This document shows positions 2,984 to 64,000 of a stretch of 64,000 nt of DNA, piece by piece (position 1 is the first letter of the stretch; every line of letters starts with the position of its first letter). The stretch lies in assembly GCA_049695995.1 (NCBI GenBank), contig JBAVTF010000115.1:1669-65668 (forward strand), read 5' to 3'. A model generated the notes under the pieces. The model made no database searches. It worked only from the letters and a program-made list of their open reading frames with translations, and was not told the DNA's origin. Made by a program: the position numbers and the translations under genes. Source of the DNA: Pirellulales bacterium. GTDB lineage: Bacteria; Planctomycetota; Planctomycetia; Pirellulales; UBA1268.

Positions 2984-3694
2984 ATGAGCGAACGGTTTTT
3001 CATTCCGAGTCCGCCAGTGGGCGGCCGCGTGGTACTCACCGCCGACGAGGCGCGGCACCTCATTCGCGTCCTGAGAGCCCGCGTGGGTGACGATGTAGTC
3101 GTGTTTGCCGGCGAGGGAGTCGAGTGGCCCGCGCGCGTCACACGCCTCGCCCGCGACGAGGCCGAGCTCGAGACGGGGGCGGCGCGGCAGGATCCGCCGC
3201 TCGTCAGCCCCTCGCTGTCGATCGCCGTGGCGCTGCCGAAAGGGGAGCGGCAGAAGTGGCTCGTCGAGAAGCTGACGGAGCTCGGCGTGGCCCAACTCAT
3301 CCCCCTGGAGACCGAGCGGGGCGTGGCGGAGGCAACGCCGGCGGCCCGTGAGCGGCTGAGGCGCGGCGTGATCGAGGCCTGCAAGCAATGCGGCCGCAAC
3401 ACGCTGATGGCAATCGGTGAGCCGCGAACAGTGGCCGCGGTGCTCGCCGACATGCCGTCTGGCAGCAGCGCGGTCATCGCCGATCCGGGCGGCCCACCGC
3501 TCGACCCTCGCGGTCTCGCCGCCGGTGCGACGAACCTCCTCGCGCTCGTCGGTCCCGAAGGGGGCTTCACCGCGGCGGAGATCGCCGCGGCCGAGCAGGT
3601 CAGTGCGATCCGCGTCAGCCTCGGCCCGCACATCCTCCGGATCGAGACGGCCGCGATCGCCCTCGCCGCGCGGCTGGCCCAGGCACGTTTTTAA
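2984..3694 (+). CDS. rsmE: 16S rRNA m3U1498 methyltransferase RsmE
   Basis: The N-terminus is M.ERFF, and the C-terminal SPOUT motif is LVGPEGGFTAAEI...LGPHILRIETAA. The length is about 236 aa. Confidence 0.85.
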   Translation: MSERFFIPSPPVGGRVVLTADEARHLIRVLRARVGDDVVVFAGEGVEWPARVTRLARDEAELETGAARQDPPLVSPSLSIAVALPKGERQKWLVEKLTELGVAQLIPLETERGVAEATPAARERLRRGVIEACKQCGRNTLMAIGEPRTVAAVLADMPSGSSAVIADPGGPPLDPRGLAAGATNLLALVGPEGGFTAAEIAAAEQVSAIRVSLGPHILRIETAAIALAARLAQARF

Positions 3695-6567: not shown

Positions 6568-7140
6568 ATGCTTGTCGGCGGAGGTGATCCGATGACGACC
6601 GCCAGCATGGTCACGACGGCCGAGCTGCTTTTTCAGGTGGCACCGGGCCTCGGCCGCTGCGAGCTCGTCGGCGGAGAGTTGCGCATGAGGTCACCGGCGG
6701 GTTCACGGCATGGGGCCGTCACGCTCCGCATCGCGACGCTGCTGGCCAACCATGTCGATGCCCACGGCCTCGGCCAGGTGTTCGCGGCTGAAACCGGCTT
6801 CATCTTGGCCCGCAATCCCGACACCGTGCGGGCGCCTGACGTCGCCTTTGTCAGCCGATACCGCCTCGAGACCGGTCTGCCGACCGGCTATTTCCCTGGC
6901 CCTCCCGATCTGGCTGTGGAAGTGCTGTCGCCCGACGACCGCCCCGCAGCCGTCGCGGCGAAGACCGCCGATTGGCTCGCCGCCGGCACGCGGCTCGTGT
7001 GGATTGTCGACCCCGCGACGCAATCGCTCGCAGCCCATGCTGCGGACGGAACCATCACCCGGTTCATGGCTTCTGACAAAGTGCCTGCCGGCGACGTCGT
7101 GCCCGGTTTTTCGCTGGCACTCGACCGCATCTTCAGCTGA
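6568..7140 (+). CDS. Uma2-family (DUF820) putative endonuclease
   Basis: The typical Uma2 pattern is present (ELVGGEL..SPAG..HG...VFAAETGF........RAPDVAFV......PDLAVEVLSP......K...W...G....WIVDP). Confidence 0.8.
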   Translation: MLVGGGDPMTTASMVTTAELLFQVAPGLGRCELVGGELRMRSPAGSRHGAVTLRIATLLANHVDAHGLGQVFAAETGFILARNPDTVRAPDVAFVSRYRLETGLPTGYFPGPPDLAVEVLSPDDRPAAVAAKTADWLAAGTRLVWIVDPATQSLAAHAADGTITRFMASDKVPAGDVVPGFSLALDRIFS

Positions 7141-26160: not shown

Positions 26161-27303
26161 ATGGCCGACATTCCCGACCCCTTTCGCGAGCCCCGGCGGA
26201 CCGCGGGCGTTCTTGGCCTGCCCACCGACCGCGAAACGATCCCGCTGATCCTGCGGCACGAGGATGTCCGGAAGGCAGCGAAGGACTGGCAAACGTACAG
26301 TTCCGCCGCCCCGTTCCGCGTACCGATTCCGTCCGAGGAGCACCTGCGGAGCGTACGGCAGCTGCCGATCGAGACCGACCCGCCCGAACACACGGAGTAT
26401 CGAGAGCTTGTCGAGCCGTTCTTCCTGCGGGCCAAGCAGCCGGCGTTCATCGCCCGCATCGAGGCGATCGTCGATCAGCTGCTGGCGGAGGCGGTCGGTC
26501 GCGACTCGATCGAGGCGGTTGGTGCACTCGCGTTGCCACTCCAGTCACGGGCGCTCACGGTCCTGCTCGGCGTGCCCGAGAAGGAGGCCGAGAGATTCAT
26601 CGGCTGGGGCGTGCACGTGTTTCATGGTGAGCACGGCGTGCGGCAGGCGGCCGAGCTGGAGCGGTACTTGAACGAGCAGTTCGAGCTGGCGGCGGCGCAT
26701 CCAGGTGATGACTTCTACGGCCTCCTGACGAAGGCCATGTTTCGCGGACGGCCACTCACGCGGGCGGAGCAGCTGGGCTTTGCGAACCTCATGTTCGCCG
26801 GCGGCCGTGACACGGTGATTCACTCCGTGGCCTGTGCGATTGGCTACCTGGCGGAGCATCCGGACGCGCTCGACTTCCTGCGGGCCGATCCCGCTCGGAT
26901 CGTGCATGCCAGCGAGGAGTTTTTCCGCGTGTTCATGCCGCTCACGCACATCGGCCGCGTCTGCCCGGTGGATACCGAGGTGCATGGCATGACGGTCAAG
27001 GCCGGCGACCGGGCGAGTCTCTGCTGGGCGTCGGCAAACCTCGACCAGACGGTCTTCGACGCGGCCGACGAGGTACGGCTCGACCGGCGGCCGAATCCGC
27101 ACGTCTCGTTCGGATTCGGTGGGCACCTTTGTCTCGGGGCAGCCCATGCCCGCACGGTCATGCGGGCGTTGCTGGCCCGGCTGTGTGCCCGCGTCGAGCG
27201 AATCGAACTGATCTCGAAGACGGATCGCGTCGAGCACACGACCGCCTACGACCGGCCGCTCGGCTACGAGTCGCTCGTCGTCCGGCTGCACGCCGGCTCG
27301 TAG
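26161..27303 (+). CDS. Cytochrome P450
   Basis: The heme-binding loop is FGFGGHLCLGAAHAR. An EXXR-like element and the I-helix motif FAGGRDTV are present. The gene is divergent from the AraC gene. Confidence 0.9.
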   Translation: MADIPDPFREPRRTAGVLGLPTDRETIPLILRHEDVRKAAKDWQTYSSAAPFRVPIPSEEHLRSVRQLPIETDPPEHTEYRELVEPFFLRAKQPAFIARIEAIVDQLLAEAVGRDSIEAVGALALPLQSRALTVLLGVPEKEAERFIGWGVHVFHGEHGVRQAAELERYLNEQFELAAAHPGDDFYGLLTKAMFRGRPLTRAEQLGFANLMFAGGRDTVIHSVACAIGYLAEHPDALDFLRADPARIVHASEEFFRVFMPLTHIGRVCPVDTEVHGMTVKAGDRASLCWASANLDQTVFDAADEVRLDRRPNPHVSFGFGGHLCLGAAHARTVMRALLARLCARVERIELISKTDRVEHTTAYDRPLGYESLVVRLHAGS

Positions 27304-27326
27304 GCCCGTCACTCCGTGACGGGCCC
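27300..27326 (+). repeat. Palindromic boundary motif copy c (GTAGGCCCGTCACTCCGTGACGGGCCC)
   Basis: GGCCCGTCAC-TCC-GTGACGGGCC forms a perfect 10-bp inverted repeat with a 3-nt spacer. The motif contains the P450 TAG stop and matches copy d at 25 of 27 positions. Confidence 0.9.
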
Positions 27327-43137: not shown

Positions 43138-43211
43138 GGGCGATTAGCTCAGTTGGTTAGAGCACCAGCTCGACAAGCTGGGGGTCATAGGTTCGAGTCC
43201 TATATCGCCCA
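43138..43211 (+). tRNA. tRNA-Val (anticodon GAC), no encoded CCA
   Basis: I folded the cloverleaf by hand. The acceptor stem is GGGCGAT/ATCGCCC. The D arm is GCTC-AGTTGGTTA-GAGC. The anticodon arm is CCAGC-TCGACAA-GCTGG. The variable loop is GGGTC. The T arm is ATAGG-TTCGAGT-CCTAT. The discriminator is A. Position 33 reads C instead of the usual U. Confidence 0.85.
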
Positions 43212-44238: not shown

Positions 44239-44259
44239 GTGCAGACTACCAGTCTGCAC
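44239..44259. repeat. Perfect 9-bp inverted repeat with a 3-nt spacer (GTGCAGACT-ACC-AGTCTGCAC) in a divergent promoter region
   Basis: I read it directly from the sequence. It lies between the epimerase start (44180, minus strand) and the GT4 start (44345, plus strand). Confidence 0.9.
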
Positions 44260-44265
44260 CTGCCT

Positions 44266-44292
44266 GTAGGCTGGTCACTCCGTGACGGGCCC
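44266..44292 (+). repeat. Palindromic boundary motif copy d (GTAGGCTGGTCACTCCGTGACGGGCCC)
   Basis: It matches copy c (27300-27326) at 25 of 27 positions. Here the GTCAC-TCC-GTGAC core is retained but the outer stem is weakened. Confidence 0.85.
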
Positions 44293-55973: not shown

Positions 55974-56058
55974 CGCAAACCTCCGGCCTTACGCCCGCGT
56001 GGAAAACAGAGCATACCCGCCTACTCCTTCGCAGATCGACGTCCTGTGGCGAAAGTAC

Positions 56059-56191
56059 GGGGCTGCCCCTGCCCCGTCGCCGGACGCTCGCTGCGGACAT
56101 CCTGTCCTTTGCTCTCTCGGATGCCGTCTTCGCTCCGCCATCCTGGCTGCGCTCGGCGGCATACGCCGGCTCCCGGGGCATGGGCAGCCCC
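56059..56191 (+). repeat. 133-nt hairpin-closed intergenic element, copy 1
   Basis: The 5' arm GGGGCTGCCCCTGCCCCG pairs with the 3' arm CGGGGCATGGGCAGCCCC. By hand alignment it is roughly 89% identical to copy 2. Confidence 0.9.
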
Positions 56192-56773
56192 TCACGGCGT
56201 TGTGGTCGGCAGCAGGCTGCGGATTTCGGCTTCGACGTCGGCGTAGGTGAACGGCCGGCCGAGTCGGCGGGCTGCGTCGTCGTCGTCGAACCGGCGGGCC
56301 AGGGTGCCGTCGGCCTTCCAGACGTAGACGGCCGGGATGCTCACGAGGTCGAGCTTCTTGTAGAGCGAATCGGCGTCTTCCTTCGTCAGCATGTTCAAGA
56401 TTTCGCCGGCGTTAACTTTTTCGAGGAACGACCGCACGGGCGGCAGAACCTCTTCGGGCGTGCCGATGCCCTCGTAGTCGAACGAGAGCGAGAGGCAGGC
56501 GACCCGGTCACGATATTTCTCCGCCAGGGCGACGAGGCCGGGGAATTCCTTCACGCAAGGGGGGCACGACGTGCTCCAGCAGTCGAGCACGACGATCCGC
56601 CCGCGCCGGGCCTCGACGGCCGCCATCAGGCCGGCGTGATCGACGAGTGCGACGTCGATGGCCTGTGCGGCGGCCGGCGGGGCTGGTGGTGGTGGCGAGC
56701 AGCCCGCGATCAGGCAGAATGCGATGCCAGCCGTGACGATCAGATGCGAGACGATGCCGCGATTCGAGCACAT
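56192..56773 (-). CDS. TlpA-like thiol:disulfide oxidoreductase lipoprotein (thioredoxin fold, CPPC)
   Basis: The lipobox is CLIAGCS. The active site is LDCWSTSCPPCVKEFPGL. ATG 56773 overlaps the divergent SpoU start by 20 nt. Confidence 0.7.
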   Translation of the reverse strand: MCSNRGIVSHLIVTAGIAFCLIAGCSPPPPAPPAAAQAIDVALVDHAGLMAAVEARRGRIVVLDCWSTSCPPCVKEFPGLVALAEKYRDRVACLSLSFDYEGIGTPEEVLPPVRSFLEKVNAGEILNMLTKEDADSLYKKLDLVSIPAVYVWKADGTLARRFDDDDAARRLGRPFTYADVEAEIRSLLPTTTP

Positions 56774-58821: not shown

Positions 58822-60309
58822 ATGTCCATTGTCGCCGATCGTCGTGTTGCCGTTTGGGCACGTCCGTTTTCACTGCTCGCAACCGGCCTCGTGACCGTGG
58901 GCGTAGGGTGCGCGCCGGCTGGTCCGGGCGGAGCGCCTGCGGGCAACGTAGTGGAGACGATCGAAGTGATCTCCACCGACGAGCCGAAGCCGGCCAACCC
59001 AGCCGTGGCCGAGACGGCGGCGGCCGTGCGGAAGGCGGTCGAGGAGACGAAGGAGGCGATCGCCGACGCCGACAAGCGGATCGCCGAGGCGGCCGAGTCG
59101 CTCGAACGCAAAACGCCGCCGGCCGAGCCGGAGAAGATCGCCGCCGCGCGTGAAAAGGTGCAACTCGGCGACCCGTCGCTCACCGCGGGCGTGCCCGCCA
59201 AAGGCGCTGGCGGCCCGATCACGCTCCCCGAGATCGAGGCCTGGCTCGACGATCCGCGGAATTTCGTGGAGCTCGAGCCGGTGCTGCCGCTCGGCCTCTC
59301 ACAGGGCGCCGCCCAGATCACGGGCCTCGACAAAAACCCACTCACGCGAGCCAAGATCGAACTTGGTCGGCAGCTCTACTTCGATCCGCGGCTCTCGGCC
59401 GACTCCACGGTCAGCTGTGCCAGCTGCCACAACCCAATCGAGGGCTATACCGCCCACACGACGACCGGCGTGGGCATCCGCGGCCAGAAGGGGGGCCGCA
59501 ATTCGCCCGTCTCGTTCAATCGCATCCTCTCGGGCCCGCAATTCTGGGATGGCCGAGCCGACTCGCTCGAGGCTCAGGCGGTGGGGCCGATCGCCAATCC
59601 GATCGAGATGGGCTTCACCCACGAGGGTGTCGTGAAGCGGCTCGGCGAGATGCCCGTCTACAAGCAGCAGTTTGAGAAGATCTTCGGGGAACTCACGATC
59701 GACCGCGTCGGCCAGGCGATCGCCGCGTTCGAGCGGGTGCTCGTCACGGCGCCGTCCCCCTACGACTACGGCGAGCAACTGCGGGCCTTCGCGGGCCTCG
59801 ACCCAGACGACATCGCCGACGATCCGGAACTGTCTGCCAAGTATGCGGCCGCGAAGGAGGCCGCTGCGGCCCATCCGATGAGCGAGTCGGCCCAGCGGGG
59901 CCGTGACATCTTCTTCGGCGAGAAAGGGAACTGCACCGCCTGCCACGTCGGGGCCAATCTCGCCGACGAGAAGTACCACAATCTCGGCATCGGCATGGAA
60001 AAGGAAAGCCCCGACCTCGGCCGGTTCGTGGTCACGAAGGACGAGAAGGACACCGGCGCCTTCAAGACGCCGACGGTGCGCAACGTCGCCCTCACTGCTC
60101 CCTACATGCACGACGGATCGATGGCGACGCTCGAGGAAGTCGTCGAGTGGTATGACAAGGGGGGCCACCCCAACCCGCACCTGAGCGACAAGATCAAGCC
60201 GCTCAAATTGACGCCGCAGGAGAAGTCCGACCTCGTCGAGTTCATGAAGGCCTGCACAGGTCCAACGCCGACCGTCGAAACCAGCCGCCTGCCCGCCGAC
60301 GGCACCTAG
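58822..60309 (+). CDS. Di-heme cytochrome c peroxidase (CcpA/MauG family)
   Basis: The two heme motifs are CASCHN and CTACHV. The family patterns FWDGRA, FKTPTVRNVALTAPYMHDGS and L..VV.WY are present. Confidence 0.9.
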   Translation: MSIVADRRVAVWARPFSLLATGLVTVGVGCAPAGPGGAPAGNVVETIEVISTDEPKPANPAVAETAAAVRKAVEETKEAIADADKRIAEAAESLERKTPPAEPEKIAAAREKVQLGDPSLTAGVPAKGAGGPITLPEIEAWLDDPRNFVELEPVLPLGLSQGAAQITGLDKNPLTRAKIELGRQLYFDPRLSADSTVSCASCHNPIEGYTAHTTTGVGIRGQKGGRNSPVSFNRILSGPQFWDGRADSLEAQAVGPIANPIEMGFTHEGVVKRLGEMPVYKQQFEKIFGELTIDRVGQAIAAFERVLVTAPSPYDYGEQLRAFAGLDPDDIADDPELSAKYAAAKEAAAAHPMSESAQRGRDIFFGEKGNCTACHVGANLADEKYHNLGIGMEKESPDLGRFVVTKDEKDTGAFKTPTVRNVALTAPYMHDGSMATLEEVVEWYDKGGHPNPHLSDKIKPLKLTPQEKSDLVEFMKACTGPTPTVETSRLPADGT

Positions 60310-60428
60310 GTCGCCCGTCCCGTCTCACCGTAGTCCGCACACTCGCGCCGTAGTCCGCATGCGGCCCACGGGCAGAACACCGCAGGCCCGTCTATTCCTT
60401 CGCGGGTCGACCTCCTGCGTGGGGGTCC

Positions 60429-60561
60429 GGGGCTGCCCACGCCCCGTCGCCGGACGCTCGCTACGAACATCCTGTTCTTCGCTCGCTCGGATGCCGCCGT
60501 CGCTTCGGCATCCTGCCTGCGCTTGGCGGCATACGCCGGCTCCTGGGGCATGGGCAGCCCC
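60429..60561 (+). repeat. 133-nt hairpin-closed intergenic element, copy 2
   Basis: The ends are GGGGCTGCCCACGCCCCG...TGGGGCATGGGCAGCCCC. The central hairpin GGATGCCG-N9-CGGCATCC is perfect in this copy. Confidence 0.9.
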
Positions 60562-60681
60562 GCACCTCCTGTACTCTGAGCCCCCAAGCACCGGCGATCA
60601 CTACAAAGACGCGCGATGGATTCCGTCGCCACCCGGTAGGCGTCATACTCGGGGGCTCGCCGTAGGCCCTCCGACGCACAC

Positions 60682-61713: not shown

Positions 61714-63531
61714 ATGCCTATCGACTGCAAACACATCCGTAATTTCTCGATCATCGCCCACATCGACCACGGCAAGAGCACGCTCGCCGACCGGCTCTTG
61801 GAGCGCACCGGCACGGTGGACAAGCGGCAGCTCAAGGACCAGATGCTCGACGACATGGAGCTCGAGCGGCAGCGGGGCATCACGATCAAGGCCCGGGCCG
61901 TGCGGATGGAATGCCGCCACCAGGGCGAGCTCTACGAGCTGAACCTGATCGATACGCCCGGCCACGTCGATTTCCACTACGAAGTCTCGCGCAGCCTCGC
62001 CTGCTGCGAAGGCGCCGTCCTGCTGGTCGATGCCTTCCAGGGGGTCGAGGCCCAGACGGTTGCCAACGCCTACGCGGCGATCAACCAAAACCTCGCCATC
62101 GTGCCGGTGATCAACAAGGTCGACCTCGTGCATGCTCGCGTGGACGAGGTGCTTCAAGAGATGGAGCAGAGCCTCGCCATCGATCCTACGGAGGTGATCA
62201 GGGCCAGCGCCAAGACGGGCATCGGCATCGACGAGTTGCTGGCCGCGATCGTGGAGCGGATTCCGCCTCCGCAGGGCGATCCGCAGGCCACCTTGCGGGC
62301 GATGATCTTCGACAGCCACTACGACGCCTACCGCGGCGCCATCACCTACGTGCGGCTCCTCGACGGCACGATCAAGAAGGGGCAGAAGATCCGCTTCCTA
62401 CGGACGGGCGTGACCCACGACGTGCTCGAGCTGGGCCAGTTCGTGCCGCAGCGGCGGGCCTGCGACGAGCTCATGGCCGGCCAGGTGGGCTACCTCGTCT
62501 GCAACATCAAGGACGTCAAGCAGGTCCACATCGGCGACACGGTGACGATCCCGGGCGACCATGCCGCACCGGCGCTGGCGGGCTACAAGCCGCCGCAGCG
62601 GATGGTCTACTGCGGCCTCTATCCGAGCGAAGGGGAGAACTTCGAGGAGCTCCGCGACTCGCTGGAAAAGCTGGCGATCAACGACCCGTCGTTCGAATAC
62701 CAGCCGGAGAGCTCGGAGGCCCTCGGCTTCGGCTTCCGCTGCGGCTTCCTCGGACTGCTCCACATGGAGATCATCCAGCAGCGGCTCGAGCAGGAGGCCG
62801 ATCTCGATCTCGTGCAGACCGCGCCCAACGTCACGTATCAGATCCTCAAGACCGACGGCGAAACGATCGAGATCACCAACCCGCAGGACGTGCCCGACAC
62901 CGGCCAGATCGAGGAGTTTCGCCAGCCGATCGTGCGGACGAATTTCCTCACGCCGGTCGAGCACATCGGGCCGATCATGCAGCTCTGCACCGATCGCCGC
63001 GGTACCTATCTGAAGACGGAATACCTCTCGCCCACCCGGGCGATGCTCACCTTCGACCTGCCTCTGGCCGAGGTGATCTACGACATGCATGACAAGCTCA
63101 AGAGCGTGACCCGTGGCTACGGCACGATGGACTACGAGCTGATCGGGTATTTCCCTGCTGACCTCGTTCGGCTCGACATCCTCGTCGGCGGCAAGAAGGT
63201 CGACGCCCTGTCCATCATCTGCGACCGCCGGGATGCCGACCGCCGCGGCCGCGCGATCGTGAAGAAGCTCCGTGGCGAGATCGACCGCCACATGTTCGAG
63301 ATCGCCCTCCAGGCCGCGATCGGCACGAAGGTCATCGCCCGCGAGACGATCTCCGCGATGCGGAAGAACGTGACGGCCAAGTGTTATGGCGGTGACATCT
63401 CCCGGAAGAAGAAGCTGTGGGCGAAGCAGAAGGAGGGCAAGAAGCGGATGAAGAGCATCGGCTCGGTGGACATTCCGCAGAAGGCCTTCATGGCGGTGCT
63501 CGATACCGGCACCGAGCGGCAGCAGGGGTGA
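61714..63531 (+). CDS. lepA: Translation elongation factor 4 (LepA)
   Basis: The motifs are IRNFSIIAHIDHGKSTLADRLL, DTPGHVDF and NKVD. The LepA-specific C-terminal region is GGDISRKKKLWAKQKEGKKRMK. Confidence 0.97.
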   Translation: MPIDCKHIRNFSIIAHIDHGKSTLADRLLERTGTVDKRQLKDQMLDDMELERQRGITIKARAVRMECRHQGELYELNLIDTPGHVDFHYEVSRSLACCEGAVLLVDAFQGVEAQTVANAYAAINQNLAIVPVINKVDLVHARVDEVLQEMEQSLAIDPTEVIRASAKTGIGIDELLAAIVERIPPPQGDPQATLRAMIFDSHYDAYRGAITYVRLLDGTIKKGQKIRFLRTGVTHDVLELGQFVPQRRACDELMAGQVGYLVCNIKDVKQVHIGDTVTIPGDHAAPALAGYKPPQRMVYCGLYPSEGENFEELRDSLEKLAINDPSFEYQPESSEALGFGFRCGFLGLLHMEIIQQRLEQEADLDLVQTAPNVTYQILKTDGETIEITNPQDVPDTGQIEEFRQPIVRTNFLTPVEHIGPIMQLCTDRRGTYLKTEYLSPTRAMLTFDLPLAEVIYDMHDKLKSVTRGYGTMDYELIGYFPADLVRLDILVGGKKVDALSIICDRRDADRRGRAIVKKLRGEIDRHMFEIALQAAIGTKVIARETISAMRKNVTAKCYGGDISRKKKLWAKQKEGKKRMKSIGSVDIPQKAFMAVLDTGTERQQG

Positions 63532-63556
63532 GGGTTCGATGCCTCTGGGTTGGGTC

Positions 63557-63689
63557 GGGGTTGCCCCTGCCCCGAGAGCCGGACGCTCGCTACGAACATC
63601 CTGTTCTTCGCTCGCTCGGATCCCGCCTGCGCTTCGGCATCCTGCCTGCGCTTGGCGGGATACGCCGGCGACAGGGTACGGGCAACCCC
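63557..63689 (+). repeat. 133-nt hairpin-closed intergenic element, copy 3
   Basis: The ends are GGGGTTGCCCCTGCCCCG...AGGGTACGGGCAACCCC. The C-to-T change in the 5' arm is matched by a G-to-A change in the 3' arm. Confidence 0.9.
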
Positions 63690-63788
63690 TCCGCGTCTTG
63701 TGGTGCACGAGGGGAAGTGTGTTCGCCGTATATTGCCGTTCCTCGCAATCCTTCTATTCAATAAAGCACGCGATAGGACGTCACGATC

Positions 63789-64000
63789 ATGAACCGCAGT
63801 GGCTATCTCGGGATCGACGCAGGCACACAAGGCCTCTCGGTGATCTTCACCGACGACGAGATGCGGATCCTCGCTCATGGCGAGGGGGGCTACGAGATGG
63901 TGGCCGGCCTCGCCGCCGAGTGTTATGAGCAGCGGCCCGGTGATTGGGAGGCTGCGCTCCGCACCGCGATGGCCGACTTGCGGGCGAAGCTCACCGCGGC
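63789..64000 (+). CDS. FGGY-family carbohydrate kinase (xylulokinase-like), N-terminal part (3' end lies outside the window)
   Basis: The N-terminus is YLGIDAGTQGLSVIF, a typical FGGY phosphate-1 motif. The ORF runs to the window edge. Confidence 0.7.
   Translation, partial: MNRSGYLGIDAGTQGLSVIFTDDEMRILAHGEGGYEMVAGLAAECYEQRPGDWEAALRTAMADLRAKLTA

Follow-up and report, generated by a model that had tools for sequence, protein, structure and literature searches.

The folded repeat that directly follows lepA in the window, i.e., the whole 64,000-nucleotide stretch of Pirellulales DNA analyzed here, is probably (probability about 0.6) one of the non-coding mobile repeats of the REP/BIME/MITE type, whose fold is needed for its own spread. 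It belongs to a family whose folded unit of 133-175 nt is present in dozens of copies per genome in freshwater Pirellulales. The family is dispersed and probably selfish, and the element does not behave as a signal specific to lepA.

The lepA gene (EF4; positions 61714-63531, plus strand; Pfam GTP_EFTU, LepA_C and EFG_C) ends with a TGA stop codon at 63529-63531, and the repeat, here called copy 3, abuts this stop directly, beginning 1 nt after it. On the plus strand, positions 63532-63705 comprise a 25-nt leader, a 133-nt hairpin-closed core (63557-63689) and a 16-nt tail. The leader, GGGTTCGATGCCTCTGGGTTGGGTC (63532-63556), was delimited by alignment of the family flanks and by the orthologous leader in locus L088 of a sister genome. 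It diverges from the leader typical of the family, GGGTCGACCTCCTGTGGCGTGGGTTC; in long forms, that leader constitutes the 3' half of an upstream hairpin. The core is closed by a helix between the 5' arm GGGGTTGCCCCTGCCCC (63557-63573, with P1 at 63557-63566 and P2 at 63568-63572) and the 3' arm AGGGTACGGGCAACCCC (63673-63689). This helix consists of 10 bp (GGGGTTGCCC/GGGCAACCCC), a C·C mismatch, and 5 bp (TGCCC/AGGGT) that include the wobble G63569·T63677. The next helix, P3, pairs GCCGG (63578-63582), which is invariant family-wide, with CCGGC (63665-63669), a strand identified from the family alignment and covariation. Two arms follow. In arm B (63585-63615), GCTCGC at 63585-63590 pairs with GCTCGC at 63610-63615, leaving invariant central T·C/C·T mismatches that are tandem G·A on the complement, and the inner hairpin is GAACA-TCC-TGTTC (63594-63606). 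Arm A (63620-63661) is built from the helix ATCCCGCC/GGCGGGAT around the hairpin GGCA-TCC-TGCC (63636-63646), so that the loop TCC is common to both inner hairpins. The tail, TCCGCGTCTTGTGGTG (63690-63705), is the 3' extension of the family, with the consensus TCACGGCGTTGTGGTTGGCA.

The fold is very stable, with energies of -79 to -96 kcal/mol. The fold z-scores are -5.4 to -6.2 on the plus strand and -5.7 to -8.2 on the minus strand, and 0 of 200 shuffled sequences folded as well. A scan of positions 63300-64000 found neither a promoter nor a Rho-independent terminator at copy 3; there is no U-tract, and the tail reads TCCGCGTCTTGTGG. The combination that marks an intrinsic terminator, a GC-rich hairpin with a direct U-run, is thus not found at the element. 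Elsewhere in this part of the window, the motif CTACAAAGACGCGCGATGGA / AATAAAGCACGCGATAGGA is shared between positions 60606-60625 and 63760-63778, upstream of the genes for a ROK and an FGGY-like sugar kinase, respectively, and may be a common promoter or operator of these two genes.

The window holds three copies of the element, all in plus orientation (cores at 56059-56191, 60429-60561 and 63557-63689), and an nhmmer profile search detected no further copy within its 64 kb. Copy 1 (55995-56204) includes a degenerate upstream module, the core and a tail. It lies between two minus-strand genes, encoding an S26 signal peptidase and a thioredoxin-like protein, and is antisense to both. Copy 2 (60326-60575) is a long form located between the genes for a cytochrome c peroxidase and a ROK kinase, and upstream of its core are two hairpins (about 60326-60428), the first of them REP-like and tagged with GTAG. 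Unlike copy 1, copies 2 and 3 have the same sense as their neighboring genes. The upstream module of about 100 nt thus precedes copy 2 (60326-60428) and copy 1 (about 55995-56058) and is absent from copy 3; its first hairpin, REP-like and bearing the GTAG tag, has a TCC loop, and the loop of the other is TCTATTCC. Small REP-like hairpins with a GTAG tag (GTAGGCCCGTCAC-TCC-GTGACGGGCC) also occur at two places in the window, 27293-27326 and 44259-44292, with the same TCC triloop as the large element, and similar units (GTAGGCCCGTTGC-TCC-GCAACGGGCTAC) flank elements in other loci.

Comparison of the three copies bears out most of what the original prediction had described. In the closing helix of copy 3, a C to T change in the 5' arm is matched by a G to A change of its partner, so the first 10 bp stay paired: where copies 1 and 2 have C-G in the alignment, copy 3 has T63561-A63685. 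A further position, G-C in copies 1 and 2, had been predicted to become a G-T pair and is indeed the wobble G63569·T63677. Two mismatches, C63567·C63679 and C63573·A63673, were absent from that description. Copy 3 was correctly called the most diverged of the three because it is only 82% identical to copy 1 and 87% identical to copy 2 in gapped alignments. The likeness of its right flank to that of copy 1 is also confirmed, and extends to the whole family, across which the tail is a conserved extension of the form TCACGGCGT(T/A)(G/T)TGG.

The size of the family was estimated by scanning one genome per species with a 24-mer from the part of the core interior that is invariant (CGGACGCTCGCTNCGNACATCCTG). 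At least 106 matching stretches were found in at least 22 Planctomycetota MAGs, with at least 23 loci in a single MAG and many copies at contig ends. An nhmmer profile search over 764 kb fetched around the matches listed recovered about 158 copies. Among the matches listed, the hosts are nearly all freshwater Planctomycetota MAGs labeled Pirellulales, Planctomycetia or 'Planctomycetaceae'. The same high-GC element is also carried by a few bins labeled 'Candidatus Kuenenia' (CAMDDA, CAMBSN, CAMDDJ, CAYRNG and CAZXIG) or 'Chitinophagaceae' (CAZPEM). In the one pair compared, L105 (CAMDDA) and L082 (bin72), the flanks are about 91% identical, and because of this identity to other hosts the organism names of these bins are probably wrong.

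The family does not correspond to any described element in the collections searched. In a scan of the whole window against Rfam 15 at the gathering threshold, the element had no match, and the sole match in the window was a tRNA gene (43138-43211, plus strand, 71.4 bits). When copies 1, 2 and 3 were searched on both strands at E<=10, nothing relevant was returned, including CsrB/RsmY/RsmZ, TwoAYGGAY and HEARO. No match was found in viral contig, plasmid or phage collections, and no description of the repeat family was found in the searchable literature. Coding capacity is not indicated, as no GC3-supported open reading frame spans the element and its indels are not in multiples of three.

An alignment of 102 full-length copies (MAFFT; mean pairwise core identity 81%) provides the main evidence that the fold is conserved. 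RNAalifold predicted 38 pairs in 8 helices, and 27 of the 38 include a compensatory change. The unit is laid out as a closing helix of 10 + 5 bp, an invariant GCCGG/CCGGC helix, and two arms, each ending in a hairpin with a TCC loop (GGA on the complement). Standard pairs occupy 96.4% of cells, compared with 84.4% after shuffling (0 of 500 shuffles reached the observed value) and 34-46% in slid controls. Cells with double changes number 438, versus 125 in shuffled alignments and 23-44 in slid controls, and the covariation score of 0.31 likewise exceeds the values of 0.10 and 0.03-0.07 for the shuffled and slid alignments. Covariation includes the inner hairpins, where columns 63-74 are G-C in 56 copies, A-U in 31 and C-G in 12, and columns 108-117 are G-C in 51 and C-G in 50. 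Other parts do not vary: the junction GCCGGACGCTCGCT and the GCCGG/CCGGC helix (columns 48-50 with 139-141) are invariant, and the TCC triloop is kept in 102 of 102 copies in one inner hairpin and in 100 of 102 in the other.

It had originally been proposed that the secondary structure itself is under selection, with a larger alignment as the test. Because that alignment shows systematic covariation, with 27 of 38 pairs doubly changed and 438 double-change cells against 125 after shuffling, the test favors a conserved structure. Overall, the sequence data indicate selection on the structure, and the interpretation as a whole is partly supported. The replacement of C-G by T-A did not hold up as a change that arose in copy 3. 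At this pair (columns 26-161), 63 of the 102 copies carry C-G, 23 T-A, 9 C·A and 2 T·G; T-A is therefore a common allele, and it is already present in the L088 ortholog. The suggestion that the lepA 3' UTR is processed or terminated at the element also found no backing: nothing ties the element to lepA, as copies occur in all gene contexts, tandem copies lie in both orientations (22 versus 15), and the U-tract of a terminator is lacking.

The remaining question concerns the strand on which the structure is maintained. On the plus strand of the 102 copies, A·C/C·A cells (79) outnumber G·U/U·G cells (30). Parsimony on a neighbor-joining tree gave the same asymmetry, with 58 changes from Watson-Crick (WC) pairs to A·C versus 24 to G·U, and 15 returns from A·C to WC versus 2 from G·U. 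With RNA parameters, the complement is the more stable strand in 100 of 102 copies (mean -87.3 versus -78.5 kcal/mol), and with DNA parameters it is so in 98 of 102. Read on this strand, the invariant mismatches are tandem G·A pairs in GCGAGC/GCGAGC and the loops are GGA, and purines make up 72% of the unpaired positions. These observations suggest that the complement of the plus strand of the window is the strand under selection. The original reading of the G-T pair in copy 3 as a G-U pair tolerated in RNA thus stands only in part. The wobble is present, but wobbles appear to be tolerated on the opposite strand (58 versus 24 changes), and therefore its reading as plus-strand RNA is doubtful. 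A mutational bias is an unlikely cause of the A·C excess because the bias at unpaired sites is weak, an excess of G>A (2.25 per G site) over C>T (1.47 per C site), and the biases expected from replication or transcription run the opposite way. The GC skew in element orientation is weakly biased (44 versus 27 loci, p=0.014). The strand evidence conflicts in one respect: relative to the orientation that makes the GTAG-REP canonical, it is the opposite strand that the wobbles and folding energies favor. At the level of sequence, the data fit either RNA or single-stranded DNA as the selected strand.

Comparison with the sister genome (L088), in which the lepA and ROK genes are 95% identical to those of the window, provides further insight into the history of copy 3. 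In L088, the same leader directly follows the lepA stop codon, and the same core already possesses GGGGTTGCCC...GGGCAACCCC with the T-A pair. In arm A, the two orthologs are separated by two flips from one WC pair to another, and the junctions show several changes. Helix 2 has three defects (C·C, G·T and C·A) that occur on the window side only, and L088 has an additional upstream module of 94 nt, located between its lepA leader and the core. The copy after lepA thus appears to be an old insertion common to the sister genome, and its T-A pair is an inherited family allele. Beyond this site, synteny between L088 (6937-8000) and the window (about 60300-60611) breaks just beside the position of copy 2, where L088 has a Fic-domain-like gene (motif HPFADGNGRTGR) in place of the cytochrome c peroxidase gene and the element.

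At the lepA site, the orthologous cores are at least as diverged from each other as paralogs are. The core of copy 3 is 87% identical to its L088 ortholog and 88-89% identical to paralogs, compared with 95-97% for the lepA flank. In orthologous copies, paired and unpaired sites each differ by about 10%, and divergence is as fast as or faster than that of the flanking coding DNA. Six orthologous pairs contain 14 WC-to-WC double changes, which are clustered by arm, and fewer than one would be expected in six pairs from independent point mutation. Columns 108-117 alone flip between GC and CG in 4 of the 6 pairs. One-sided changes number 16, comprising 7 A·C, 4 G·U and 5 of other types. The pattern points to copies trading existing alleles with one another, through gene conversion or replacement, alongside ordinary decay.

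Presence and form of the element differ between syntenic relatives. In L053, the site of copy 2 is empty, with the peroxidase stop codon adjoining the ROK start, and the site of copy 1 is also without an element. L053 also carries a truncated, inverted copy between ROK and lepA, two genes that are 10 nt apart in the window. Similarly, a dimer in L082 is represented by a monomer at the same place in L105, and elements are frequently located at synteny breakpoints. No direct repeat indicating a target-site duplication was found at the core ends of the three window copies, whose true limits are obscured by leader and tail modules. The empty sites available for comparison are too diverged to delimit a target-site duplication or an exact insertion boundary.

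The element is associated with the 3' ends of genes. Gene context was assigned with a GC3-based gene caller validated on Pfam-supported genes. Among the 69 copies classified, 28 are convergent, 22 are tandem in the same sense as the plus orientation of the window, 15 are tandem and antisense, and only 4 are divergent, against 90 convergent and 89 divergent regions in the intergenic background. Thus, 65 of 69 copies face at least one gene 3' end, and divergent promoter regions are avoided. The median distance from the upstream stop codon to the copy is about 40 nt. The orientation to transcription is not fixed.

The family is also modular. In some of the genomes, copies form dimers: sixteen close pairs are tail-to-tail and none are head-to-head, and each combines two monomer types that have diverged. 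The upstream module of long forms, about 100 nt in length, contains a GTAG-tagged REP-like hairpin (GTAG-TCCGCATGC-TCC-GCATGCGG) and, after it, a hairpin that includes the leader as its 3' half. On the 3' side of the core, 30 of 106 copies (28%) have a GTAG at a distance of up to 35 nt, compared with a background of 5% (p about 1e-14), at variable positions; it is missing at most copies, including copy 3, which has GTCTTG. An additional module, GGCTTCAGCCTGTCATG, adjoins the outer end (TCAACTCGCCCAA) of dimer-type copies (outer flanks, L004, L067 and L096), and the family is therefore a mosaic, like BIMEs. Inside the loops of some copies, a hairpin of about 28-30 nt (CAATCCGCTAACGCGGATCGGTGCCCGC) constitutes a second small repeat nested in the first (L065, about 6880-6910; L006, about 2330-2360 and 2430-2460; L026, about 3560-3590). 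Two candidate vehicles were rejected. Dimers about 4.4 kb apart at three loci of one MAG resembled a composite transposon, but the intervening segments are unrelated, and a 1.96-kb difference beside the element between L055 and L002, considered as a transposase insert, encodes membrane proteins.

Among known systems, the closest parallels are with the RAYT-mobilized REP, REPIN and BIME sequences, including GTAG REPs and TIR repeats (Di Nocera et al., 2013, PMC3733652). Both groups are high-copy, extragenic, palindromic and located mostly downstream of genes, and they share inverted tail-to-tail dimers, mosaic clusters, and vertical persistence with turnover within genomes. The high copy number and inverted doublets of REPs and REPINs have their counterpart here in the at least 23 loci per MAG, the approximately 158 copies in 764 kb and the 16 tail-to-tail pairs. 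Moreover, the element is physically fused to GTAG-tagged hairpins, and its host phylum is reported to carry GTAG REPs and many Y1 transposases (PMC3733652). In contrast, a REP is a single palindrome of 20-40 nt, while the core of the element is 133 nt long and branched, with 8 helices, two inner hairpins and invariant loops. A GTAG is near only 28% of its copies, on the 3' side; its dimers are heterodimers, built from two diverged monomer types; and the DNA sampled yielded no RAYT/TIRYT gene with the element on its flanks.

Bacterial MITEs, of the kind derived from DDE-transposase elements, are non-coding elements of 70-300 nt with terminal inverted repeats, flanking target-site duplications and stable folds that reside in intergenic regions near coding sequences and show presence/absence polymorphism between strains. 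For bcr1 of Bacillus cereus, compensatory changes have been reported. The element resembles them in its length of 133-175 nt, lack of coding capacity, terminal inverted repeat of 10 + 5 bp, intergenic location, fold and presence/absence polymorphism. It differs in that covariation extends deep into the interior rather than being confined to the terminal repeats, and in being modular, with a leader, a REP module and a tail. Neither the sampled loci nor the plasmid and phage collections yielded a parent IS that shares its terminal repeats. The set of MITE-type elements used for this comparison (bcr1, ERIC, Correia/NEMIS, RUP and BOX) derives partly from the background given in PMC3733652. PATEs, palindrome-associated elements that derive from IS200/IS605, have strand-specific subterminal hairpins, insert 3' of a fixed tetranucleotide and show a strong bias in replication orientation. 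In the present family, the wobbles are strand-asymmetric, the GC skew is weakly biased (44 versus 27 loci, p=0.014), and no fixed flanking tetranucleotide was identified.

Because the copies lie at gene 3' ends, a role in the mRNA is a real rival to the mobile-repeat reading, albeit a rather doubtful one. The element would then be a host-level RNA, transcribed with the neighboring mRNAs and acting in cis through its fold, with mobility as a means of dispersal only. It could serve as a 3' exonuclease barrier or stabilizer, a decay or processing site, or a factor-dependent terminator, and such roles in mRNA have been reported for REP, ERIC, Correia and bcr1 elements. The facing of a gene 3' end by 65 of 69 classified copies, the short distance to the upstream stop (a median of about 40 nt, and 1 nt at lepA), the stability of -79 to -96 kcal/mol and the covariation of the inner hairpins are in agreement with this role, as is the purine content of the unpaired positions of the complement (72%), which is like that of many functional RNAs. 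Against it, tandem copies occur in both orientations (22 versus 15), copy 1 is antisense to both of its neighbors, and the strand that tolerates wobbles runs antisense to the orientation that upstream genes more often have. Furthermore, the element has no U-tract terminator, its orthologs diverge at or above the rate of the flanking coding DNA, and syntenic relatives lack it at the same sites. That the fold is a chance hairpin or an ordinary lepA terminator with a coincidental double substitution is refuted by family size and covariation and retains almost no probability. With only three copies, one double change could have been a coincidence, but more than 150 related copies show systematic covariation, z-scores are below -5, and there is no U-tract.

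Two other explanations assign the fold to protein binding. The complement presents two hairpins with an invariant GGA loop in the context CAGGAUG. Repeated GGA-loop hairpins are also a feature of the CsrB/RsmZ decoys and the TwoAYGGAY motif, and CAGGAUG with a GGA loop is the repeat unit of CsrB-type CsrA decoys. It is very improbable that these hairpins bind or titrate CsrA or another dimeric RNA-binding protein. The more general proposal that the complement is a mobile regulatory RNA, a compact four-helix module with tandem G·A motifs that recruits or titrates a protein such as CsrA near gene ends, is improbable, and presentation of CsrB-like CAGGAUG hairpins to CsrA, which motif resemblance suggests, seems similarly unlikely. 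If true, such a mobile CsrA-binding RNA module would wire many genes into one post-transcriptional circuit. The GGA loops are kept in 102 of 102 and 100 of 102 copies above covarying stems, long forms add further GGA and AGGAGG motifs on the complement, both stability (100 of 102 copies) and wobble asymmetry favor the complement, and CsrA (PF02599) is common in Planctomycetia. Unlike the CsrB/RsmZ RNAs, however, the element occurs in dozens of copies per genome, with no promoter of its own seen, no consistent linkage to csrA or orientation to transcription, and no match at E<=10 to CsrB, RsmY/Z, TwoAYGGAY or other Rfam families. A GGA loop also need not be a protein site, since GNA triloops are exceptionally stable in DNA hairpins as well. 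Genomic linkage to csrA was rejected: one csrA lies about 740 nt from an element in L058, but this adjacency is probably due to chance because no element lies within 3 kb of csrA at 12 loci representing two other genotypes. In these Planctomycetia, csrA (L058, 3732-4436, minus strand; L108-L119) is flanked by MpsC/DUF2294 genes, and the L058 CsrA and its neighbor both possess Gly-Asn dipeptide repeats (NGNGNGNGNG). It is also very improbable that the element is a duplex or cruciform DNA site bound by a chromosomal protein such as gyrase, IHF or a nucleoid protein, in which case compensation would arise mechanically, by intrastrand template switching in the palindrome, and not through selection. 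BIMEs have been proposed as DNA sites for chromosomal proteins, and the element family is similarly mosaic and modular, with dimers; in addition, 124 parsimony events are direct WC-to-WC double changes with unobserved intermediates. Such a site nonetheless predicts no strand asymmetry, whereas asymmetries of 58 versus 24 and 15 versus 2 are seen, and template switching alone leaves the invariant loops and junctions and the 96.4% pairing at about 81% identity unexplained.

Under the preferred reading, a non-autonomous mobile repeat, the fold would persist since only copies or lineages able to fold keep propagating. The folded single strand would most likely be the substrate of a transposase or recombinase acting in trans. 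The foremost candidate is an HUH/Y1 enzyme of the RAYT/TIRYT type, and mobilization as single-stranded DNA by a Y1 transposase is inferred. Gene conversion among copies would homogenize whole arms, and the lepA transcript would be affected, if at all, only incidentally. Planctomycetes are reported to carry GTAG REPs, and Rhodopirellula baltica to possess many Y1 transposases with flanking repeats (PMC3733652). A phmmer search with E. coli RayT against six-frame open reading frames of the window and the 106 loci (764 kb, about 1% of each genome) returned nothing at E<=10. No autonomous element or parent IS with the same ends was seen in the sampled loci either, and the segments between neighboring copies are unrelated. 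The element is much larger and more branched than a REP, and a protein-binding RNA would be just as good an explanation of its invariant loops and junction; a role at the mRNA level would likewise be in keeping with the preference for gene 3' ends.

In conclusion, the family provides a clean, quantified case of helix-preserving evolution in a bacterial repeat, from uncultured freshwater Planctomycetota. The strand asymmetry, if it holds, offers a way of asking whether selection acts on such repeats in the form of RNA or of single-stranded DNA. In these genomes, the family breaks MAG assemblies, marks synteny breakpoints and exposes probable mislabeling of bins, and it could act as a population marker in long lake time series.
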